Below, one piece after another: positions 10,157 to 29,756 of a stretch of DNA of 64,000 nucleotides. This stretch comes from a phage, in NCBI GenBank assembly GCA_015370545.1, contig GCA_015370545.1_3932.1; one strand, given 5' to 3'. Each line of letters starts with the position of its first letter. Positions within the stretch are counted from its first letter, which is position 1. Both the position numbers and the translations under genes were made by a program. Under the pieces are notes generated by a model. That model saw nothing but the letters and a program-made list of their open reading frames with translations. It was not told where the DNA came from and did no database searches.

Positions 10157-10609
10157 ATGTTAAGTTCATTTTACATAGCACTGACTGAGATTCTATATAA
10201 AGAATTTGGTACAGATACCATCTTTGACTCTAATGAGGCTATAAAAGCTCTCAGAAGTGGAAGTGACTGCCTAAGTAAAAGCCCTATAGCAAACATTCGG
10301 TATTACTTGACCACAATGCGTAAAATGGGGCTACTGATGGCTGTAAGTCAGGGAACAAAAGACTGTGCTTCTCTATACCTAAACCAACTAAATAAAATGA
10401 TGATAGAGAGCGACCCACAACTATCAAGACTACTTGATAGTGTTGACAAAACTAATAGGAATACAAGAACATCAAAACCAAAAGGTGAGTTCCTCCCTGA
10501 TGCAAAATACTTTATTGATGAACTAATGTTTGATACCATAGAAGATGCAGTTGAGTATTGCAAAAAGAATATTATTAAGTTGAAAAGAAAGAAAATTATT
10601 TGGGAATAA
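10157..10609 (+). CDS. hypothetical protein, tandem paralog 2
   Basis: 150 aa; paralog of 9659-10123. Confidence 0.5.
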   Translation: MLSSFYIALTEILYKEFGTDTIFDSNEAIKALRSGSDCLSKSPIANIRYYLTTMRKMGLLMAVSQGTKDCASLYLNQLNKMMIESDPQLSRLLDSVDKTNRNTRTSKPKGEFLPDAKYFIDELMFDTIEDAVEYCKKNIIKLKRKKIIWE

Positions 10610-10635
10610 AACTACCATTATCGAGAGAGAAAACT

Positions 10636-11517
10636 ATGAAAACATCTATCCGTGTTACAGTTCATTCACCAACTAAAGGAACTCATGAAGAAGAGTTTAA
10701 CATCATCCAATTTCCTTCTGGTGAGATTGGTGGACACTTTTCGCCAGAGTTTGTTGATTTCACTGCTTATGCAGCATCATCCATCAACAATGTGATTATG
10801 ATTGTAAAAGGTTATGATAAGGATACATTGTTTGCTGTGGCACTTGCTAAAGAAGCAATTGATGATTTAATTCCTCATGGTTATGCTTTAAAGACTGTCA
10901 TCTTTTACTACTTACCAAATGCACGTTATGACCGTCACATGTTTAAAGGCGACGCAGCAGCTTTAAAGGTTTTTGCTAAACAGGTAAATGCAATGGGATT
11001 TGGTGCAGTCTGTGCAGTTGACCCTCACAGCTATGTACCAGATAACCTGTTTAACTGCTTCCAGAGTATTCCTCAAAAGGAAATTGCAGTCCACTATGCA
11101 AATGACCCACTGATTGATTACTTAGTAGCCCCAGATGCAGGTGCTGCTAAGAAGATTGCAGAGACTGCTAAAGAGGTGGATAAACCATATATCACAATGT
11201 CTAAAGTACGCAACCTTAAGACTGGTGAAATTACTGGTATGCGAATCCTTGATGATGTTGATTTGACAGATAAAACCGTCATGATTCTGGATGATATCTG
11301 TGATGGTGGTCGAACCTTCATAGAAGCAGCTAAACATCTTCGTGAAGCAGGTGCAAAACGTGTGGAACTCTATGTAACACACGGTATCTTCTCTAAAGAT
11401 GTTGAAAACCTTCTTGACAATGGCATTGACCACATCTACACTACAAACTCTTTAGGGGAAGCTAAAGACCGTGGCTTAACACATTATGGTCAAGTTACTG
11501 TAGCAAACCTTGATTGA
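10636..11517 (+). CDS. Prs-family pyrophosphokinase (PRPP synthetase-like; possibly ADP-ribose diphosphokinase Adps)
   Basis: ILDDICDGGRTFIEAAKHLREAGAKRV matches the Prs PRPP-binding loop; start at ATG 10636. Confidence 0.75.
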   Translation: MKTSIRVTVHSPTKGTHEEEFNIIQFPSGEIGGHFSPEFVDFTAYAASSINNVIMIVKGYDKDTLFAVALAKEAIDDLIPHGYALKTVIFYYLPNARYDRHMFKGDAAALKVFAKQVNAMGFGAVCAVDPHSYVPDNLFNCFQSIPQKEIAVHYANDPLIDYLVAPDAGAAKKIAETAKEVDKPYITMSKVRNLKTGEITGMRILDDVDLTDKTVMILDDICDGGRTFIEAAKHLREAGAKRVELYVTHGIFSKDVENLLDNGIDHIYTTNSLGEAKDRGLTHYGQVTVANLD

Positions 11518-11525
11518 AACTTTAT

Positions 11526-11548
11526 AGGGGCTTAAAAGCCCCATTTTG
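11526..11548 (+). terminator. intrinsic terminator or attenuator
   Basis: GGGGCT-TAAA-AGCCCC hairpin followed by ATTTTG. Confidence 0.55.
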
Positions 11549-11562
11549 AGAGAGATTAAAAG

Positions 11563-13344
11563 ATGACTAAATCACTTTATGCAGTACCAGCAGGTTTAAA
11601 CGCAGATGCTTACAAATCTGGTCATGTTTACCAGTACCCTAGTGCAACAGAGTACTTGATGTTCAACCTGACACCACGTAGTGACAAATGGTTTAACAGC
11701 CCCTTAGCAATTGATGGTGTAGTAGCTTTTGGTATTCAACGTTTCGTTAAAGATTACTTGATAGACCACTGGAACGCCACTTTCTTTGAACGTGATAAAA
11801 AAGAAGCCATTGATGAAATCTTAGAAGTCATGAATGGTGTTCTGGGTAAAGATGCTATCGGTCGAGAGCATTGGGAAGCACTTCACGACTTAGGTTATCT
11901 ACCAGTTGAAGTATACGCTGTAGAAGAAGGTACAGTTGTTCCTATGCGTGTACCAATGATTGTCTTCCAGAACACTGTTTCAGGTTTCCATTGGGTAGCG
12001 GGATATCTGGAAGATGCTTTCTCTGCTGAGATTTGGAAGGCTTGTACCATTGCAACTATTGCATTGCATTATAAACGCATCTGTAAGAAGTGGGCTGACC
12101 TTACTTGCGACAATGACTTACATTTACCTTATCAGTGCCATGACTTTGCTATGCGTGGTATGTCCGGCTTTACTGATGACGCATTTAACGCTGTAGGCCA
12201 CTTAACCAGCTTTAAAGGGACTGATAGCTTCCCTGCTGTATATACAGCTAAACGCATCTACGGACAGTCTTACCAAGTCTCTGATATTGGTGGTTCTGTA
12301 CCAGCCACTGAACACTCTGTAATGTGTGCAAACATTGCTTGGGAAGGTGGTAATGAGTTGGTTGAAGAAGAAAGACGCTTTAAAGGTGAGTTACAAACCT
12401 TCCGTCGTTTCTTAACAGAAACTTACCCAACGGGTATTGCAAGTGTTGTTTCAGATACTTATAACTTCTGGAGAACTGTGTCAGAAATCTTACCAGCACT
12501 CCGTAAAGAAATTATGGAACGTGATGGCAAACTGGTAATTCGTCCTGACTCTGGAGACCCTGTACACATTGTCACAGGTTATAAAACAATCCACTTAGAG
12601 TGTGCTAAAAAGGCTTATTACGAGCACCTAAGTAAGCTGGAAGCCAGTGACGCAATGCTGAATGCTGTTCTGAACATGAAGCTTGAAAACATCAGCTATG
12701 GTATTGCTGGATGGCTACTGTCAGAAGGCTACGAAATGGTTGTTGACAGAGAAGACTTTGAAGTTGCTGATACAGTGCTGTTGAAGAACGCTTATATGGT
12801 TGGCTCTGCAAACGTTGTAACACGCCCTGTAGCAGAGATTGATGGAGCTATTAAGACCTTGTATAACATCTTTGGAGGAACTATCAACTCTAAAGGTTTT
12901 AAGGTACTGGATGAGCACATTGGACTTATCTATGGTGACTCTATCACGTTGGAACGTGCAAACGAAATCCTGAAGCGTCTGTATGAAATGGGGTTTGCAA
13001 GCTCTAACGTGGTGTTTGGTGTAGGCTCTTACACTTACCAGTACATGACTCGTGACACCTTTGCATTTGCTGTCAAAGCAACTCTTGCAAGCATTGGTGG
13101 CAAAGAGATTATGCTTGCAAAAGACCCTAAAACAGATAGTGGTGTTAAGAAATCTGCCTTTGGTGGTGTAGCACCTATGTGGGATGGTGAGAATTTGAAA
13201 GCTGTAGATGGCTACGGATTCCAGAGCTTTGCAGATGCACTTGACCACCCAGCTTGTGCTTTACGTTTAGTCTTTAGCAACTCTGAGCAGTTCGGTTACA
13301 CATCTCTTGGTGATATTCGAAATAATATTGACAAGCAGCTTTAA
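11563..13344 (+). CDS. nicotinamide phosphoribosyltransferase family protein (NAMPT/NadV-like; possibly Namat)
   Basis: 593 aa; N-terminus MTKSLYAVPAGLNADAYKSGHVYQYP recalled as NAMPT-family-like; adjacent to Prs-like gene. Confidence 0.75.
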   Translation: MTKSLYAVPAGLNADAYKSGHVYQYPSATEYLMFNLTPRSDKWFNSPLAIDGVVAFGIQRFVKDYLIDHWNATFFERDKKEAIDEILEVMNGVLGKDAIGREHWEALHDLGYLPVEVYAVEEGTVVPMRVPMIVFQNTVSGFHWVAGYLEDAFSAEIWKACTIATIALHYKRICKKWADLTCDNDLHLPYQCHDFAMRGMSGFTDDAFNAVGHLTSFKGTDSFPAVYTAKRIYGQSYQVSDIGGSVPATEHSVMCANIAWEGGNELVEEERRFKGELQTFRRFLTETYPTGIASVVSDTYNFWRTVSEILPALRKEIMERDGKLVIRPDSGDPVHIVTGYKTIHLECAKKAYYEHLSKLEASDAMLNAVLNMKLENISYGIAGWLLSEGYEMVVDREDFEVADTVLLKNAYMVGSANVVTRPVAEIDGAIKTLYNIFGGTINSKGFKVLDEHIGLIYGDSITLERANEILKRLYEMGFASSNVVFGVGSYTYQYMTRDTFAFAVKATLASIGGKEIMLAKDPKTDSGVKKSAFGGVAPMWDGENLKAVDGYGFQSFADALDHPACALRLVFSNSEQFGYTSLGDIRNNIDKQL

Positions 13345-17575: not shown

Positions 17576-18124
17576 ATGAAGAAATTGATTCTAGGTTTGT
17601 GCTTAATGTTTACAGCACACTTATCTTATGCAGTTGACTGCCCAGAGCTATCAATTAGCCAAAAAGTGAACATGTTAAAAGCTTACCAGTATGGTGAGAA
17701 TAACATGGGTAAAGGTTGGGGTATCACTCTAGCAGCTATAGCCTTACAAGAGTCAGAGTTAGGTCTGAAGGTAGAAAATAAAAAGACCCATGACTATGGT
17801 ATCTTCCAGAATCACTTGAAGACTGTTGTAAAGCGTAACAAAATTAGTCCTAATGTTGCTAAAAAGAAACTCTTAAAAGATTTTGACTATGCCGCAAAAG
17901 AAACACATAAAGAGCTTGAGTTTTGGACGAAGGTACATGGTCAGCCAAAGTCAAAGAAGACTTTACAAAAAGTTTTAGCATCATATAATGCTGGGTATTC
18001 GTACAAAATCCCTAAAGCTAAGAAATACTCTCAAGATGTCTATAACAATATGAAAGTTATCGCTCAATGTGAATTTGCAACAAACATTTCTAAGGTAAAT
18101 CATGAAAAAATTAAGAAAGTCTGA
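17576..18124 (+). CDS. secreted protein with lytic-transglycosylase-like motif
   Basis: N-terminal signal peptide MKKLILGLCLMFTAHLSYA; ALQESELGL...DYGIFQ resembles the SLT catalytic region. Confidence 0.45.
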   Translation: MKKLILGLCLMFTAHLSYAVDCPELSISQKVNMLKAYQYGENNMGKGWGITLAAIALQESELGLKVENKKTHDYGIFQNHLKTVVKRNKISPNVAKKKLLKDFDYAAKETHKELEFWTKVHGQPKSKKTLQKVLASYNAGYSYKIPKAKKYSQDVYNNMKVIAQCEFATNISKVNHEKIKKV

Positions 18125-18797
18125 TGAAGTCCTGTGCCACGCTTATGACTTGCATCCTCATGAGTTAGGTCTTGATTCCTGTGTATGGACTCCAGAACAG
18201 TGCAGGGATTTTGAAGACACTGCAAGAGAAGTTGTATGTTCACTGGAAGAGTTCCACACATCAGAACCAATTGTGAACGTTGTGGACAAAGAGACTGGAC
18301 AAACTATAGGTGTAAGGCGTGATAGTTTAGTCATAGTCAATAAAGACCTTGTAGAAAAAGGTAACCTCATCTTAGCAGATATTGATGGTGTTCTTACAAA
18401 TTTTAATCACGAAGATTGCTCAACGGAATTGACTGATGGGTCATTCTCACAGTACACTAATCTTCTTGACTCTGTAAGAGCAAAACCAACATATGTTTTT
18501 AGTATTATTGATGCAATTGCTAGTCATGCTGCCATTGGACTCTTGACAGCGAGAGGTGAATCTCAGAGAATACCTACTGAGATGTTTTTAAGGCATAACA
18601 TAGAGCATGATTACATGCTTTTTATGCGTGGTTTTGGAACTAACTCTATAAGTGCAGAAAGTTTAAAAGTGAGGATGATTCAGTCTTGCATTCTTCCTTA
18701 TTTTAATATAGTATGCTTTATAGAAGATACAGAGAAGAATGTTCAGAAGGTTAACAGAATCCTTCCACACATTAAAACCATGTTAGTTAAACATTGA
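18102..18797 (+). CDS. HAD-superfamily hydrolase-like protein
   Basis: LADIDGVLTN (HAD motif I-like), GLLTARGE and IEDTEKN; true start uncertain. Confidence 0.4.
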   Translation: MKKLRKSDEVLCHAYDLHPHELGLDSCVWTPEQCRDFEDTAREVVCSLEEFHTSEPIVNVVDKETGQTIGVRRDSLVIVNKDLVEKGNLILADIDGVLTNFNHEDCSTELTDGSFSQYTNLLDSVRAKPTYVFSIIDAIASHAAIGLLTARGESQRIPTEMFLRHNIEHDYMLFMRGFGTNSISAESLKVRMIQSCILPYFNIVCFIEDTEKNVQKVNRILPHIKTMLVKH

Positions 18798-19284: not shown

Positions 19285-19306
19285 AGGCTCCTTCGGGAGC
19301 CTTTTT
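19285..19306 (+). terminator. intrinsic terminator
   Basis: AGGCTCC-TTCG-GGAGCCT hairpin followed by TTTTT. Confidence 0.7.
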
Positions 19307-19325: not shown

Positions 19326-19673
19326 ATGACATTTAAAGAGTTCTGTCAAGCTACTTTCATAATTGTTTTCTTAGTTGGGGCAGGTGTCTGGGGAGGATAC
19401 TCTTACAGAGACTACCAAGTTGCTGAAGCTGAGTTAAGCAATGAGAAACTAATAAGTGTTGCTAAAGATGCTTATCAGGAAGGTTTAGCCACACTCAGCA
19501 CCAATTACAAAAATGATTTGAAAGATGTGCTTGCTAAGAATAAGCATACAAAAGAGGTACTAACATATGAAAAAACTAAGCCAGAGTTTTATAATGTTTG
19601 TGTTACTGATAATTATGTCAGGGTGTTCAACGAACAAAGTGAACAGTACATTCAAAAACTCCCAAGTAAGTGA
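19326..19673 (+). CDS. i-spanin (Rz-like)
   Basis: 115 aa; N-terminal transmembrane helix then charged periplasmic domain; contains an overlapping lipoprotein gene in another frame. Confidence 0.65.
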   Translation: MTFKEFCQATFIIVFLVGAGVWGGYSYRDYQVAEAELSNEKLISVAKDAYQEGLATLSTNYKNDLKDVLAKNKHTKEVLTYEKTKPEFYNVCVTDNYVRVFNEQSEQYIQKLPSK

Positions 19674-19836
19674 GAGTGACAAGTACACTCAAGAAGAGTC
19701 AAGATTCACTGTCAAAGGTAATACTGGTAGTGATGTGGCAGCAGCCCTTGAGTTTTATCGTGATGGTTTTTACCAGTGCACAATCAAAGCTAATAACCTT
19801 ATTGATATGATTTTATTAGGAAACAAACAGCAATGA
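19567..19836 (+). CDS. o-spanin (Rz1-like lipoprotein)
   Basis: starts inside the Rz-like gene in a different frame; signal peptide with lipobox IIMSGC. Confidence 0.65.
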   Translation: MKKLSQSFIMFVLLIIMSGCSTNKVNSTFKNSQVSESDKYTQEESRFTVKGNTGSDVAAALEFYRDGFYQCTIKANNLIDMILLGNKQQ

Positions 19837-20102
19837 CAGAGAATGAAGACACTTTCTATGTAGAAGGGTACTTACTGCTACCACGACCAAAAGAAACTTA
19901 TATGCGGGTTGATTTCTCACCAACCATTATGGATAATGTGATGTGTCATATCTTTATGCAAGGTGTCACAGCACAGCTTAAGCACGTTGGTAAAGAGTGC
20001 AAAATAAAGGTTGACACTCATCCAGAAATCAAAGAGAATCACTACACATGGTTCTTACCAGATTCTAAAGAAATCTTAGCAGTTCTTAAAACGAGGAAAT
20101 GA
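19833..20102 (+). CDS. hypothetical protein
   Basis: 89-aa ORF; ATGA overlap with upstream stop. Confidence 0.4.
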   Translation: MTENEDTFYVEGYLLLPRPKETYMRVDFSPTIMDNVMCHIFMQGVTAQLKHVGKECKIKVDTHPEIKENHYTWFLPDSKEILAVLKTRK

Positions 20103-20413
20103 TTATGCAATTCCAGCCAACCAATCGTGGATTTTCTTATGCAGAATTTAAAGATGCTAAAGGGGAAATTTGTACTTTACAAGAGAGTTCATCATATGAA
20201 CCATGTATTTGGTTAGGTGCTAAAGAGGTCTCTGTTCAGTACCTAGATGGTGGCTGGAAAACACTTGATATCCCAGCATTAGTAGGCAAAGATTTTGTAG
20301 GTAACCAAAGAATGAAACTCAACCAAGAACAGGTGAAAGAGTTATTGCCATACCTTCAGTACTTTGCTGAAAATGGTGAATTACCAACAGAGGAACTTAC
20401 AAATGCAGATTAA
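20099..20413 (+). CDS. hypothetical protein
   Basis: 104-aa ORF; ATGA overlap. Confidence 0.4.
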   Translation: MIMQFQPTNRGFSYAEFKDAKGEICTLQESSSYEPCIWLGAKEVSVQYLDGGWKTLDIPALVGKDFVGNQRMKLNQEQVKELLPYLQYFAENGELPTEELTNAD

Positions 20414-20729
20414 TGGAAGAGACTTTGTAGCCGTTTACTACGAGAAAGATAAAGAAGTTGGCGTAGCACAAGTATCTTATGGTAATGGTAAGTGGTTGTA
20501 TGGGACAATCGCAGTAGTCGGAACAAGAAGTGATACAAAAACTTTTAAAGATTGTGTTGACCTCCTTGAAGAATCCATTCAGAATCATTGGTGTCTGATA
20601 TGGATGACTGACAACGAAGTGATAGAACGCTTCAAAAAGATTGATATCAACATTGATAGTATTGAGCATGTTGATTTATATGAGCTAACTGAGAAGGTAA
20701 ACTATGAGAGTAATTCTAGCCAGAGATAA
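20403..20729 (+). CDS. hypothetical protein
   Basis: start set at ATG 20403 (MQINGRDF) overlapping upstream stop. Confidence 0.4.
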   Translation: MQINGRDFVAVYYEKDKEVGVAQVSYGNGKWLYGTIAVVGTRSDTKTFKDCVDLLEESIQNHWCLIWMTDNEVIERFKKIDINIDSIEHVDLYELTEKVNYESNSSQR

Positions 20730-20931
20730 AAAGACACGGAAACTCATCCGGTCAGCAGTATTCATTGGAAGAAATGAAGTCATCCCGTTTACAGCAAACG
20801 ATGTGATAGCCTACAGGAAAAACTTAGTGTTTAGTGATTGCTTGCGTGGCTTCATCTCCCAACCGTTGGAAGACTTTAAAAGCCGTTGTGGTAAAGGTAT
20901 CATCATTCAAGAGGCAATTATCAATGGCTGA
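20704..20931 (+). CDS. hypothetical protein
   Basis: 75-aa ORF. Confidence 0.35.
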   Translation: MRVILARDKKTRKLIRSAVFIGRNEVIPFTANDVIAYRKNLVFSDCLRGFISQPLEDFKSRCGKGIIIQEAIING

Positions 20932-21124
20932 CTTCTGCAAAGACTGTTCTATCGAAATGTTCGGACGTGATACAGGTGACTTAAAAGGTCTTATCACTGA
21001 AGATGACTTTAAAGCTGGTTATGCAATGCCAGTAATCTGTGAAGGTTGTGGGTGCATCTGGGTAGACCACGAAGGACAACGTGTAAAACCTTCAGAAGAC
21101 AAAGAATCTTGGGAGAGATGTTAA
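20924..21124 (+). CDS. small Cys-rich zinc-ribbon protein
   Basis: 66 aa; CKDC...CEGCGC cysteine pairs; start overlaps upstream stop. Confidence 0.4.
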   Translation: MADFCKDCSIEMFGRDTGDLKGLITEDDFKAGYAMPVICEGCGCIWVDHEGQRVKPSEDKESWERC

Positions 21125-21910
21125 ATGGGTATTGTAAAAATAATTAATGGTGATATCTTTGCCGCATTTGATAAAGGTAAGTTTGACATCATCGGTCACG
21201 GTTGCAACTGTATGAATTTAATGAGTGCAGGTATCGCTGACAAGATTTCTAAACTTTACCCAAAAGCATATGAGACCGATACAGAAGTTTATCTGTATGC
21301 AGGTGGTATAGGACACAAACCCTGTGAAAATTTACTAGGTAATTTCTCTGTAGCACGTTTAAAACAAGGTCGTATAGCTAATCTTTACACTCAGCTTAAG
21401 ACTGGTAAAGATGCCCGATACAGTGCTTTAGAGTCATCTTTGAAACAGCTTAACAGATACTGTGAAGTTAATCAGTTGAAGAAAGTTGGGTTACCTATGA
21501 TTGGTGCAGGTATCGGTGGACTTGACCCTCAAGCCGTTACCGTTATCATTAATCAGGTGATGAAGAGTGTAGATGTGTATCTGTATGTCTACGAAGGAGA
21601 GATGTACCACAAGTTACGCTCAGGTTGGAATAACTACTGCGAACCAGAATACTTTGCAGGTGTAGTAACGTTCACAGACAATGCAGTTACCCTCTTCAGA
21701 CGAAGAAAAGGTAAGATACATCAAAGTAACCCTCCGGTTGAAAAGATGTCTCTAAGTAACGCTCTAGTTACCCACCTGTCGAAGAGCAATCACAGAATTG
21801 CAGTAACATTTGGCAGTGATGCAGACACATATATCTATGCAAGGACTGATGAAGATATCGAGGAGATTTTCTCATCACAAGAAGTTACCTTCTTAGACGC
21901 AAAGAACTAA
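21125..21910 (+). CDS. macro-domain protein (Poa1p-like)
   Basis: 261 aa; N-terminal IIGHGCNCMNLMSAGIA matches the H-x-CNC...G-x-GIA signature recalled from yeast Poa1p. Confidence 0.6.
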   Translation: MGIVKIINGDIFAAFDKGKFDIIGHGCNCMNLMSAGIADKISKLYPKAYETDTEVYLYAGGIGHKPCENLLGNFSVARLKQGRIANLYTQLKTGKDARYSALESSLKQLNRYCEVNQLKKVGLPMIGAGIGGLDPQAVTVIINQVMKSVDVYLYVYEGEMYHKLRSGWNNYCEPEYFAGVVTFTDNAVTLFRRRKGKIHQSNPPVEKMSLSNALVTHLSKSNHRIAVTFGSDADTYIYARTDEDIEEIFSSQEVTFLDAKN

Positions 21911-21940
21911 TAAACTCTGTAGAATATTCACAATAGATTA

Positions 21941-21986
21941 AGCCTTCCTTATCTGGTAAATTTTTCAGGTAAGGAAGGCTTTTTTA
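21941..21986 (+). terminator. intrinsic terminator
   Basis: 10-bp stem GCCTTCCTTA / TAAGGAAGGC followed by TTTTTT. Confidence 0.65.
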
Positions 21987-22170
21987 TTTCAAGATTGTGC
22001 AGGTAGAGTTCTGTAGAGAAATCTGTAGAGAAAATTTTGAACTCCAAAGAGAAAATTCATTTTCAAACTGTGCAGGTAATCTCCAAAGAGCTTTTTCATT
22101 TTCAAAACGTGCAGACCCCGCTCAGGTCGGGCAAGAAAAATCATTTTAGAATTGTGCAGGTAGGTGGATG
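21984..22170. repeat. four tandem direct repeats, core CATTTTCAAA-N-GTGCAGGTA
   Basis: copies at about 21984, 22056, 22095 and 22140; CTCCAAAGAG also repeated twice. Confidence 0.6.
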
Positions 22171-28152: not shown

Positions 28153-29756
28153 CGTCTATCGAATCCTTATACAATCCCTTTCCCTTTCCTTTCTAGAATC
28201 TTATCAGACCTTAAAAAGCAATAACTCTATAGTCTACTCTATAACCTCTTATCAAATCAACTTAAATATAAGCCAATAACCCCAGAAAGGGGATGGCCCA
28301 TTAAAACGCTCTATAAAGCTCTATAACAGCCTTATCAACCTAACTTAAGCAATCATATTAACCCACTCTAAAAAGCCCTTTATAGAGCTTCCCAGAGCCT
28401 TAAAAGAATCTTATAAGGGTGAAAGCTTATAGGCTGGCTAGTATCTTGTGAATAACTAAACAATCCCCTTGATAGTCACTAAAAAGCATGTTATAGGGGC
28501 TATAAAGTTACTTCAAAGTAACGTAAAAAAGGCTATAAAGTTACGTAAATGCTAGCCCCCTTAACATTTTCTTAACAATTTCTTAACAATCCCTACATAG
28601 TTATGCTTGTTAGAGACTTGTTAGCCCCTTGTTAAATCTCTGTTACAACCATGTAAAAGCCTTGTAAGAACCTTTGACATAGCCTTAAAAGCCCTGTAAA
28701 GCCCTATAAAGAGCTATCCATACAGTTGGGCTGTAGTTACTAGGGAGAGACTTAAAAGGGGCTATACAGAGCTATAGAGGGCTTTTAAGAGGTATGTTTA
28801 AAGAATCACTAAGAATCAAAGGGAACGATAAGAAAAGAGATAGTGACCATGTTAATAGCTTGTTAAAAAGATTAAACACTTGTTAGAAACTTGTTAATTA
28901 TCCCTACAAAATAACTCTTTAAAATTAACTTGTTAGCTCTTGTTAGTCATCTGTTAAGACTCTGTAAAGACTATTCAGCACTTGTTAGAAAACTGTTAAG
29001 TTCTTGTTAGTTCTGTTAAGAAACTGTTAAGACCTTTGGAGAGTTGTTAAGAGCTTGAGAGAGTTGTTAAGAGATTGTTAAGGATATTTTAAAATTCTGC
29101 AAAGTACTTGTAAGGGAGCTGTTAAGGGCTACCAAGCAGATATACATCTTCTACAGATATTTTTCAGTTCCTTCAAAGACCCTAAAAAATGACTTGATAG
29201 CCCTATTTTATAAAAATTTTAAAATTCTGAATAATTACCTAGACAGTCTTTTAAAAATACAGGTAGAAACAGGCTTATAAGATACCTTGTTAGTACCGTG
29301 TTAGACCTTGTGAGATAAGGTCTGTGAAGATATTCCTGTTAAGTTTGTTAAAACAGTCTATATAGAGGCTTAGTAGTACCTAGTGAACATCTATAGAGGG
29401 TATCATAGCTAACCTAGAGATTAAGAGGTGTATAGGGGCTTCTAAGAGGGTATAGAGAGATGGTTAAGGTGATTGTATAGGTTGTTAAGAAGGATTGTTA
29501 GAAGAGTGTTTAGAGGGCTATTTAGAAGGGTTATACAGAGGGCTATTAAGACCACTAGATAGTTACTAAGATACTATATAGTACTATATAACTATATAGA
29601 GAGTAAGATTAAGAAGGTTGTTAAGAAGGATAGATATCTTATTCACATATGATGGTGACCCAGAGGTTGGGACAACCGATAAAATTTTATAAAAATATAA
29701 ATTTCGTAAATTTTACTCAATAAAAAGCCCCCAATTAAGGAGGCTCTTAAGATATT
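28153..29756. repeat. ORF-free region dense in short direct repeats (iteron-like)
   Basis: no ORF of 60 aa or more in 1.6 kb; roughly 25-30 copies by eye of CTTGTTAG / CTGTTAAG / GTTGTTAAGA, plus GCTATAAAG, CCTTAAAAG and TTTTAAAATTCTG repeats. Confidence 0.7.

Follow-up and report, generated by a model that had tools for sequence, protein, structure and literature searches.

A two-domain macro protein encoded apart from NARP1 in a FelixO1-like phage: a candidate ADP-ribose-1''-phosphate hydrolase

A stretch of 64,000 nucleotides of phage DNA (contig GCA_015370545.1_3932.1 of the GenBank assembly GCA_015370545.1), called here the window and belonging to a FelixO1-like myovirus (Ounavirinae, Felixounavirus), carries at positions 21125–21910 of the plus strand a gene for a protein of 261 amino acids (aa) in which a macro domain is followed by an orphan C-terminal domain. 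The most likely role of this protein, to which an even chance of being the right one can be given, is that of an unlinked Adpp-type hydrolase that would convert ADP-ribose-1''-phosphate (ADPR-1''-P) into ADP-ribose (ADPR) for NARP1, a pair of genes for the reconstitution of nicotinamide adenine dinucleotide (NAD+) found in the same DNA. The gene itself has already been annotated in related phages and its family has recently been characterized in two preprints; the new part is the two-domain version that is not linked to NARP1. A first-pass annotation, made from the sequence alone, had described the gene as coding for a Poa1p-like macro protein at the end of the spanin operon with a possible part in counter-immunity, an interpretation that is supported by the comparisons given here.

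The open reading frame (ORF), with the boundaries that the first-pass annotation had drawn, is a real and conserved phage gene. Its ATG stands directly 3' of the TAA of the upstream gene and is preceded, about 9 nucleotides (nt) before, by a GGAG-like box. With bas63_0095 of the BASEL phage Bas63 (JohannRWettstein) the protein shares 97% identity, and it matches the profile of phrog_335 over its full length (aa 1–260, E 8.2e-111). The gene was found in about 260 phage records, and the 4-kb region around it shares 94–96% identity with many phages of E. coli and Salmonella. In these relatives it is annotated as 'phosphatase', 'macro domain-containing protein' or, in one record, 'ymdB O-acetyl-ADP-ribose deacetylase', and GenBank records of relatives also use the label 'Poa1p_like family'.

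NARP1 in the window and the Adpp-type role

NARP1 (Adps and Namat) was discovered and characterized in an operon of Bas63 (10.1101/2024.02.11.579819). The NAD-related genes that the first-pass annotation had pointed out elsewhere in the window are this system: the region 10600–13344, with its Prs-like and Nampt-like pair, shows 92.9% nucleotide identity to Bas63 over 89% of the query, in a match that takes in bas63_0080 and the greater part of bas63_0079. Adps and Namat are thus present in the same DNA as the macro gene, as a 'NARP1-AP' pathway would need, and the macro gene lies about 7.8 kb (some 15 genes) downstream of them on the same strand, in a separate unit bounded by terminators.

The interest of this combination comes from the work of Osterman et al., who described aRES, a RES-domain defence that converts NAD+ into nicotinamide and ADPR-1''-P, a product that is unusable by NARP1 alone (10.64898/2026.01.28.702374). 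Adpp of Vibrio phage Gary, a representative of the Poa1p-like macro proteins encoded inside some NARP1 operons, was purified and shown to convert ADPR-1''-P into ADPR, and the anti-aRES activity was abolished when any one of the three genes was inactivated; a primer set for an H24A mutant of Adpp is listed in the supplement (10.64898/2026.01.28.702374). Such a macro protein was reported within two genes of NARP1 in 15% of NARP1 phages, in a survey that covered two genes to either side of NARP1 and whose Table S1, the source of the Adpp sequence and of the panel of NARP1-linked macro proteins used here, contains no Escherichia or Salmonella phage (10.64898/2026.01.28.702374). A copy that is not linked to NARP1 and lies about 8 kb from it would be missed because of that span of two genes and because phages of these hosts are absent from the table.

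According to the proposed pathway, a RES-domain defence such as aRES would phosphorolyse NAD+ to nicotinamide and ADPR-1''-P; the macro domain would bind the ADP-ribose and hydrolyse the substituent at C1'' of the ribose, in this case removing the 1''-phosphate; and the resulting linear ADPR would be turned into NAD+ by the phage's own Adps and then Namat. FelixO1-like phages would in that case possess a NARP1-AP pathway with the phosphatase about 8 kb from NARP1 and outside its operon. This Adpp-type role is modestly favoured because NARP1 needs ADPR and a member of the same family makes ADPR from a product that NARP1 cannot use. Additionally, the hosts of these phages, E. coli, Klebsiella and Enterobacter, are bacteria in which aRES occurs.

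Fold and nearest structures of the macro domain

The presence of a macro domain in the N-terminal part, as the first-pass annotation had proposed, is upheld both by profiles and by structure. Pfam PF01661 matches aa 25–141 with 29.5 bits, above the curated gathering cut-off of 22 (E 7.7e-7), and AlphaFold2, with 21 homologues as input, gave a model (mean predicted local distance difference test, pLDDT, of 85) that shows a macro alpha/beta/alpha domain, mostly at 85–96, over aa 1–166, followed by a low-confidence linker (aa 167–172) and a separate beta-rich domain (aa ~176–258). In a Foldseek search of PDB the model was matched, top first, to the Thermus aquaticus DarG macrodomain (5m3e, E 4.7e-10), TARG1 (4j5r, 6.7e-10) and Poa1p (6lfq, 9e-9), all three with a probability of 1.00, and the TM-score to DarG and TARG1, normalized to target length, was 0.80–0.85. 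The family profile searched against PDB (E 3e-16) gave 62.8 bits for TARG1, 62.7 for Poa1p, 59.9 for M. tuberculosis DarG and 51.7 for T. aquaticus DarG. TARG1 is also the best PDB match of the single sequence (E 4e-5), and DarG is the best match among curated profiles (42.7 bits with NCBIfam NF048014, 1.3e-11 with PADLOC). Membership of the DarG antitoxins was rejected, with those 42.7 bits standing against an NF048014 cut-off of 250 and with positions 4–152 of the 338 of the model matched. Because the structural and profile scores are mixed and the DarG models match the macro half far below cut-off, the domain belongs within the Poa1p/TARG1/DarG group of macro domains and is a member of no single one. 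'Poa1p-type' is nevertheless a fair label for it, given the pattern of its N-terminal block, a Poa1p profile score level with that of TARG1 and the 'Poa1p_like family' records.

Each of the solved relatives shares part of its features with the phage protein. Yeast Poa1p (6LFQ) has the macro fold, a block H-S-C-N-C...G-G-G-I-A...Y-P-K-A and, like the phage protein, no lysine at the TARG1 K84 position; it differs by an identity of about 26%, a serine at the position of the invariant glutamine, a long insert ahead of the final glycine loop and its place in eukaryotic tRNA splicing. The DarG macrodomain (5M3E of T. aquaticus, 5M3I of M. tuberculosis) has its N22 at the position of N28 and a similar G-x-G-x-G-G-L-D loop, whereas DarG and PhiKZ gp104 are 23–24% identical to the phage protein, carry a lysine (K80, K78 in PhiKZ) where it has glutamine, and the phage protein lacks the C-terminal DarT-binding domain of DarG. 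TARG1/OARD1 (4J5R) has a histidine at the H25 position and a G-A-G-I-A loop, and unlike the phage protein it lacks the C-N-C motif.

Catalytic positions

The catalytic positions were compared through a hidden Markov model alignment and a MAFFT alignment, which were in agreement. H25, N28 and C29 of the first motif, as well as N86, L87, T89 and Q90 of the second, are invariant in the 21 homologues. H25 is aligned with H24 of Adpp, H23 of Poa1p and the histidine of TARG1, whereas DarG has an asparagine there. Q90 is aligned with the catalytic lysine of DarG (K80) and TARG1 (K84), a position at which Poa1p has a serine, and each of the 26 aligned sequences of the phage family, those of Gary Adpp and T4 Tk.4 among them, has a glutamine there. 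G131 is aligned with D125 of TARG1 and F152 of Poa1p. TARG1 is said, after Sharifi et al. 2013, to depend on K84 and D125 as its catalytic residues, and with K84 replaced by Q90 and D125 by G131 the protein was not assigned to TARG1/OARD1. Deacetylases of the MacroD/YmdB type are recognized by the signatures N-x6-G-G-[VLI]-D and G-[VIA]-[YF]-G; this assignment was rejected as well, the corresponding sequences being N28-x6-A-G-I-A, which has no aspartate, and G-I-G-G, which has no aromatic residue.

The catalytic lysine is described as a shared one (PMC8883491). The lysine mechanism of TARG1 and DarG cannot operate in the phage protein. N28 is aligned with DarG N22, an active-site residue of DarG (PMC13309987). 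Since both the lysine and the aspartate of TARG1/DarG are absent, the chemistry cannot simply be transferred from any solved enzyme, and the missing lysine fits a Poa1p or Adpp type better than a glycohydrolase of the DarG type.

In its N-terminal block (H-x-C-N-C ... G-G-I-A ... P-K-A) the protein bears a striking likeness to Poa1p. Of the signature H-x-CNC...G-x-GIA that the first-pass annotation had recognized, the first half is present as H25-G-C-N-C29; the second half reads S34-A-G36-I-A38 in this protein, with a serine in place of the first glycine, although glycine is found at position 34 in at least 90% of the homologues, including the Bas63 protein. The serine (codon 21224–21226) lies in the ADPR-binding loop and may affect activity. 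Among the Poa1p residues for which mutant structures have been deposited (H23, S30 and F152), the histidine is kept as H25, and the serine and the phenylalanine are replaced by L32 and G131. Gary Adpp, which is active, has arginine and alanine at the S30 and F152 positions; S30 and F152 therefore do not define the phage enzymes.

The phage family and its studied members

A search with tblastn found a homologue in 2837 phage records. In Tequatrovirus the homologue adjoins the vs gene and is, according to the T4 record, tk.4, 'phosphatase; contains A1pp phosphatase motif', an annotation to which phrog_335 owes its name. The macro protein is 34–36% identical to T4 Tk.4 (BLASTP E 2e-23), 27% identical to Gary Adpp (E 8e-13) and 34–36% identical to other NARP1-linked macro proteins (phiPsa374, VCM, JG004). 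Three motifs, H-x-[CA]-N-C, N-x-[YH]-x-Q and G-x-G-x-x-G, are common to Adpp, Tk.4 and the NARP1-linked proteins, and all of them are found here as H25-G-C-N-C29, N86-L-Y-T-Q90 and G127-A-G-I-G-G132. Adpp, the T4 protein and the macro protein accordingly belong to one family, since they share the three motifs and H24 of Adpp is aligned with H25. The likeness to Gary Adpp extends to the presence of NARP1 in the phage; on the other hand, Adpp is a stand-alone protein of ~158 aa encoded between Adps and Namat, whereas the present protein has 261 aa, an orphan domain and a place in the spanin operon about 8 kb from NARP1. With T4 Tk.4 it shares phrog_335 and the sequences H-G-C-N-C, N-L-Y-T-Q and I-G-A-G-I-G; Tk.4 differs in that it has 155 aa and no C-terminal domain and in that its role was assigned by genetics rather than by biochemistry.

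HIDEN-SEQ singled out tk.4 as the one gene that T4 conditionally requires on DarTG2; clean deletion sensitized the phage to DarTG2 and the gene was named adfM, for an anti-DarT factor with a macrodomain, with DNA de-ADP-ribosylation by Tk.4 inferred from genetics and not measured (preprint, 10.1101/2025.11.20.689424). The other published AdfM, gp104 of the chimallivirus PhiKZ, is DarG-like, with N23 and K78 (PMC13309987). With the DarG macrodomain as query, 265 phage records of another set were retrieved; T4 and the named Felixounaviruses were absent among the matches listed. In another architecture, a metagenomic protein of 339 aa (P0016) carries a macro domain of the same type fused to cREC_REC (PF20274, 'cyclic-phosphate processing receiver domain'), which links the macro family to the processing of ADPR cyclic or 1''-phosphates.

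Possible roles of the macro protein

Several observations weigh against an Adpp-type role. The macro gene lies outside the NARP1 operon, for which the survey allowed a distance of up to two genes, and its place at the end of the spanin operon, with terminators of its own, leaves co-regulation with NARP1 hypothetical. T4 Tk.4, which is not known to have a NARP1 partner and has another role (anti-DarTG2), is equally close or closer to the protein than Adpp is, and a neighbour-joining tree gave no support for an affiliation to either the Adpp or the Tk.4 side (bootstrap 5/100). Adpp lacks the additional C-terminal domain, Ser34 replaces the usual glycine of the ADPR-binding loop, and S30 and F152 of Poa1p are not conserved.

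The main rival is an AdfM-type role, a real possibility though clearly a lesser one, in which the protein would remove the ADP-ribose placed by DarT2 on thymidines of phage single-stranded DNA or would neutralize DarT2 otherwise, as has been proposed for T4 Tk.4; in a variant of it, binding of the toxin could be contributed by the C-terminal domain, which would echo the DarG architecture of a macro domain followed by a DarT-binding domain. T4 Tk.4/AdfM is the closest experimentally studied homologue by pairwise score and its deletion sensitizes to DarTG2, DarG is the best match both among curated profiles and in Foldseek, the loop G-A-G-I-G-G-L-D resembles G-x-G-N-G-G-L-D/P of DarG and DarG N22 is kept as N28. 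Two deep alleles of the gene, with the C-terminal domain diverging fastest (22% identity), would also fit an arms-race interface. However, the lysine of DarG (K80) and of PhiKZ AdfM (K78) is an invariant glutamine in the whole family, the assignment in T4 is a genetic one in which enzymatic activity of Tk.4 on DNA is inferred, and the DarG-type phage macro proteins form the separate set of records in which T4 and the named Felixounaviruses are absent among the matches listed. Moreover, the C-terminal domain does not match the C-terminal half of DarG and, being acidic, does not suggest DNA binding; no DarT was found next to the macro gene among the ten neighbouring proteins scanned. Sequence alone does not decide between the two roles, and they are compatible, as both reactions free a leaving group from C1'' of the ribose. 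A dual-mode anti-defence protein, built like DarG, whose C-terminal domain would bind host DarT2 or the RES/aRES NADase and whose alleles would be specificity variants fitted to different toxins of the host, is rather unlikely, as is the related idea of a lysine-independent His/Asn/Gln mechanism that cleaves both ADPR-1''-P and thymidine-linked ADPR; if true, such a lysine-independent bifunctional enzyme would disarm two unrelated defences by itself.

The counter-immunity roles proposed by the first-pass annotation match those of the homologues (the phosphatase of Gary, and T4 AdfM against DarTG2), with the exception of its idea about Thoeris, which is without support. Hydrolysis of other soluble ADPR derivatives, either the Thoeris signals (the cyclic isomers 2'cADPR and 3'cADPR, with 1''-2' and 1''-3' glycosidic links) or O-acetyl-ADPR, seems quite improbable. 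Macro domains do act on many 1''- or 2''-linked ADPR derivatives, the product could feed NARP1 in the way that another accessory enzyme of NARP1, RyDEP, turns isomers of cyclic ADPR into ADPR for it, and one record bears the YmdB annotation; however, cleavage of these isomers has been shown for no member of the family, the YmdB/MacroD signatures are replaced by A-G-I-A and G-I-G-G, and the phage solutions described for Thoeris signals are sponges and RyDEP. Still less probable is a housekeeping role in RNA repair, in which the protein would clear ADPR-1''-P (Appr-1''-p) produced by a 2'-phosphotransferase of the Tpt1/KptA or sirtuin type during tRNA repair, as yeast Poa1p does. This was the original rationale of the 'A1pp phosphatase' annotation of Tk.4 as well as of Poa1p function; phage RNA-repair neighbourhoods with ADPR-processing domains have been described in the literature, and a polynucleotide kinase (PNK)-like gene (18102–18797), a possible partner, is located about 2.3 kb upstream of the macro gene, but it belongs to another transcription unit, beyond the terminator at 19285–19302, and the ten neighbouring proteins scanned gave no Tpt1/KptA or sirtuin match. 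The least probable of the explanations considered is a non-catalytic binder or sponge of ADP-ribose, or a main role tied to lysis. The canonical lysine and aspartate of TARG1/DarG are missing and the gene is translationally coupled to the spanin operon, yet Gary Adpp is catalytically active with the same glutamine, the histidine, asparagine and glutamine that are invariant throughout the family argue for catalysis, and nothing ties macro domains to lysis. The Thoeris, O-acetyl-ADPR, RNA-repair and non-catalytic alternatives thus find little support.

Should bas63_0095 be an unlinked Adpp, the extended, aRES-defeating pathway is already present in Felixounaviruses, and the share of NARP1 phages with the phosphatase, published as 15%, is too low because of the search window of two genes to either side. 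Two groups have given the roles of ADPR-1''-P phosphatase and of anti-DarTG2 factor to one family devoid of the lysine; a phage with both NARP1 and the macro gene is a good system in which to test whether this family is bifunctional, and Bas63 is a directly tractable E. coli phage from which the gene is easy to delete.

The C-terminal domain and allelic replacement

The first-pass annotation had left the C-terminal part without assignment, and so it stays: these ~95–100 aa gave no match in Pfam (E<=10), NCBIfam or PADLOC, and DarG in particular was not matched by the domain alone in NCBIfam or PADLOC. Its secondary structure is predicted to be the same in the full-length model and when modelled alone, and the computed pI of aa 167–261 is 5.5. 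The cREC domain (PF20274) was considered and rejected, with an hhalign probability of 0.1% and a beta-rich fold in place of the alternating alpha/beta of a receiver. Outside the Felixounavirus-type clade the domain is retained by no more than a few, more distant relatives (P0009, P0010 and Hafnia phage Zyzzx), whereas the other members of the family are stand-alone macro proteins of ~155–185 aa. It most likely serves protein–protein contact or targeting rather than catalysis.

The comparison with a second Felixounavirus contig (L005) revealed two deep alleles of the macro gene. The two contigs share 97–100% protein identity in Namat, rIIA, rIIB, the PNK-like protein, Rz and the zinc-ribbon gene, whereas the identity of the macro proteins is 40% overall, a figure that rises to 52% for the macro domain and falls to 22% for the C-terminal domain. 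DNA homology ends near 21268 and returns past the stop codon, with sharp breakpoints. The minor allele is found at >=95% identity in 13 phage records, for example in Salmonella phage FSL SP-107. Such cassette-like replacement, with the C-terminal domain diverging fastest, is what would be expected of a counter-defence locus and, together with the restriction of that domain to one clade, marks the locus as a probable arms-race interface. Two of the small ORFs of the spanin operon also differ in the otherwise near-identical L005: the ORF 20099–20413 is missing (region compared, 20110–20389) and the ORF 20704–20931 is replaced or highly diverged, at 25% identity (region 20711–20916). The macro gene is therefore not the sole variable cassette of the operon.

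The spanin operon and neighbouring sequence

The gene order in this part of the window is nrdA/B, nrdD/G, Prs-like, Nampt-like, rIIA, rIIB, PNK-like, Rz, Rz1, four small ORFs, a CxxC...CxxC protein and the macro gene (Table 1). Terminator-like hairpins at 19285–19302 and 21940–21981 enclose a unit that begins with Rz and closes with the macro gene, and whose ORFs abut or overlap, with 4-bp ATGA overlaps and with the TAA of the CxxC...CxxC gene and the ATG of the macro gene contiguous at 21122–21127. The translationally coupled operon drawn by the first-pass annotation is recovered in its overlaps, bracketing hairpins and zinc-ribbon protein; its count of five small ORFs is corrected to four, for which relatives show the same gene calls.

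Table 1. Positions of the macro gene, its parts and the other features discussed (window coordinates unless another sequence is named)
Feature	Position	Strand	Description
Macro gene (whole)	21125..21910	+	261-aa two-domain protein, macro plus orphan C-terminal domain; orthologue of bas63_0095
Macro domain, aa 1-166	21125..21622	+	PF01661 at aa 25-141; alpha/beta/alpha fold in AlphaFold2 model; Foldseek matches
H25-G-C27-N28-C29 motif	21197..21211	+	aligned to Adpp, T4 Tk.4, Poa1p, DarG
N86-L-Y-T89-Q90 motif	21380..21394	+	Q90 at position of DarG K80 / TARG1 K84
I126-G-A-G-I-G131-G132	21500..21520	+	diphosphate-binding loop; second glycine loop
Orphan C-terminal domain, aa ~173-261	21641..21907	+	six beta strands and one helix
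Allele regions	window 21268-21960; L005 10144-10837; KC139638.1 40381-41154		two deep alleles of macro gene
NARP1 NAD+ reconstitution pair	10600..13344	+	Adps (Prs-like, ends 11517) and Namat (Nampt-like, 11563-13344)
Terminator-like hairpin	19285..19302	+	immediately upstream of Rz; start of transcription unit
Rz, i-spanin	19326-19673	+	phrog_1152 Rz-like spanin, 8.9e-42; i-spanin in Bas63 annotation
Rz1, o-spanin	19567-19836	+	overlaps Rz; lipobox-like ...IMSGC; phrog_456, 7.9e-5; o-spanin in Bas63 annotation
Four overlapping small ORFs	19833-20102, 20099-20413, 20403-20729, 20704-20931	+	PHROG families without known function
Zinc-ribbon-like protein	20924..21124	+	66 aa, CxxC...CxxC; phrog_2210 covers aa 31-96 of longer ORF
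Intrinsic terminator-like hairpin and T-tract	21940..21991	+	17-bp stem; end of operon

Ten neighbouring ORFs were scanned and none passed any Pfam threshold, the matches being spanins, the PNK-like family and PHROGs without known function. The PNK-like protein, of 231 aa, belongs to a 'polynucleotide kinase' family (phrog_3970, E 1.8e-134) and gave no Pfam match; its gene belongs to the transcription unit that lies upstream of the one with the spanins, and the protein could be an RNA-end-processing enzyme.

Just past the terminator of the macro gene, at 21983–22162, there are three copies of TCATTTTnnAAnTGTGCAGGTA spaced by 73 and 84 nt, a 10-mer without enrichment in the rest of the window. 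Between 22380 and 27850, downstream of the macro operon, each small ORF of the plus strand is preceded by a repeated intergenic cassette of about 90 nt. The cassette combines a box of the TTGACA type with a GGGGAGGGAAnnACCTTCCCCAC hairpin and with a conserved leader that has AAACTAGGAGATTCAAAAATG at its end, and the region resembles a series of single-gene modules, in contrast to the coupled operon upstream. Finally, a cluster of short direct repeats of the TGTTAAGA / CTGTTAA type is located at 28850–29100, near the switch of coding-strand polarity (~29.7 kb), and may represent iterons or a regulatory region.

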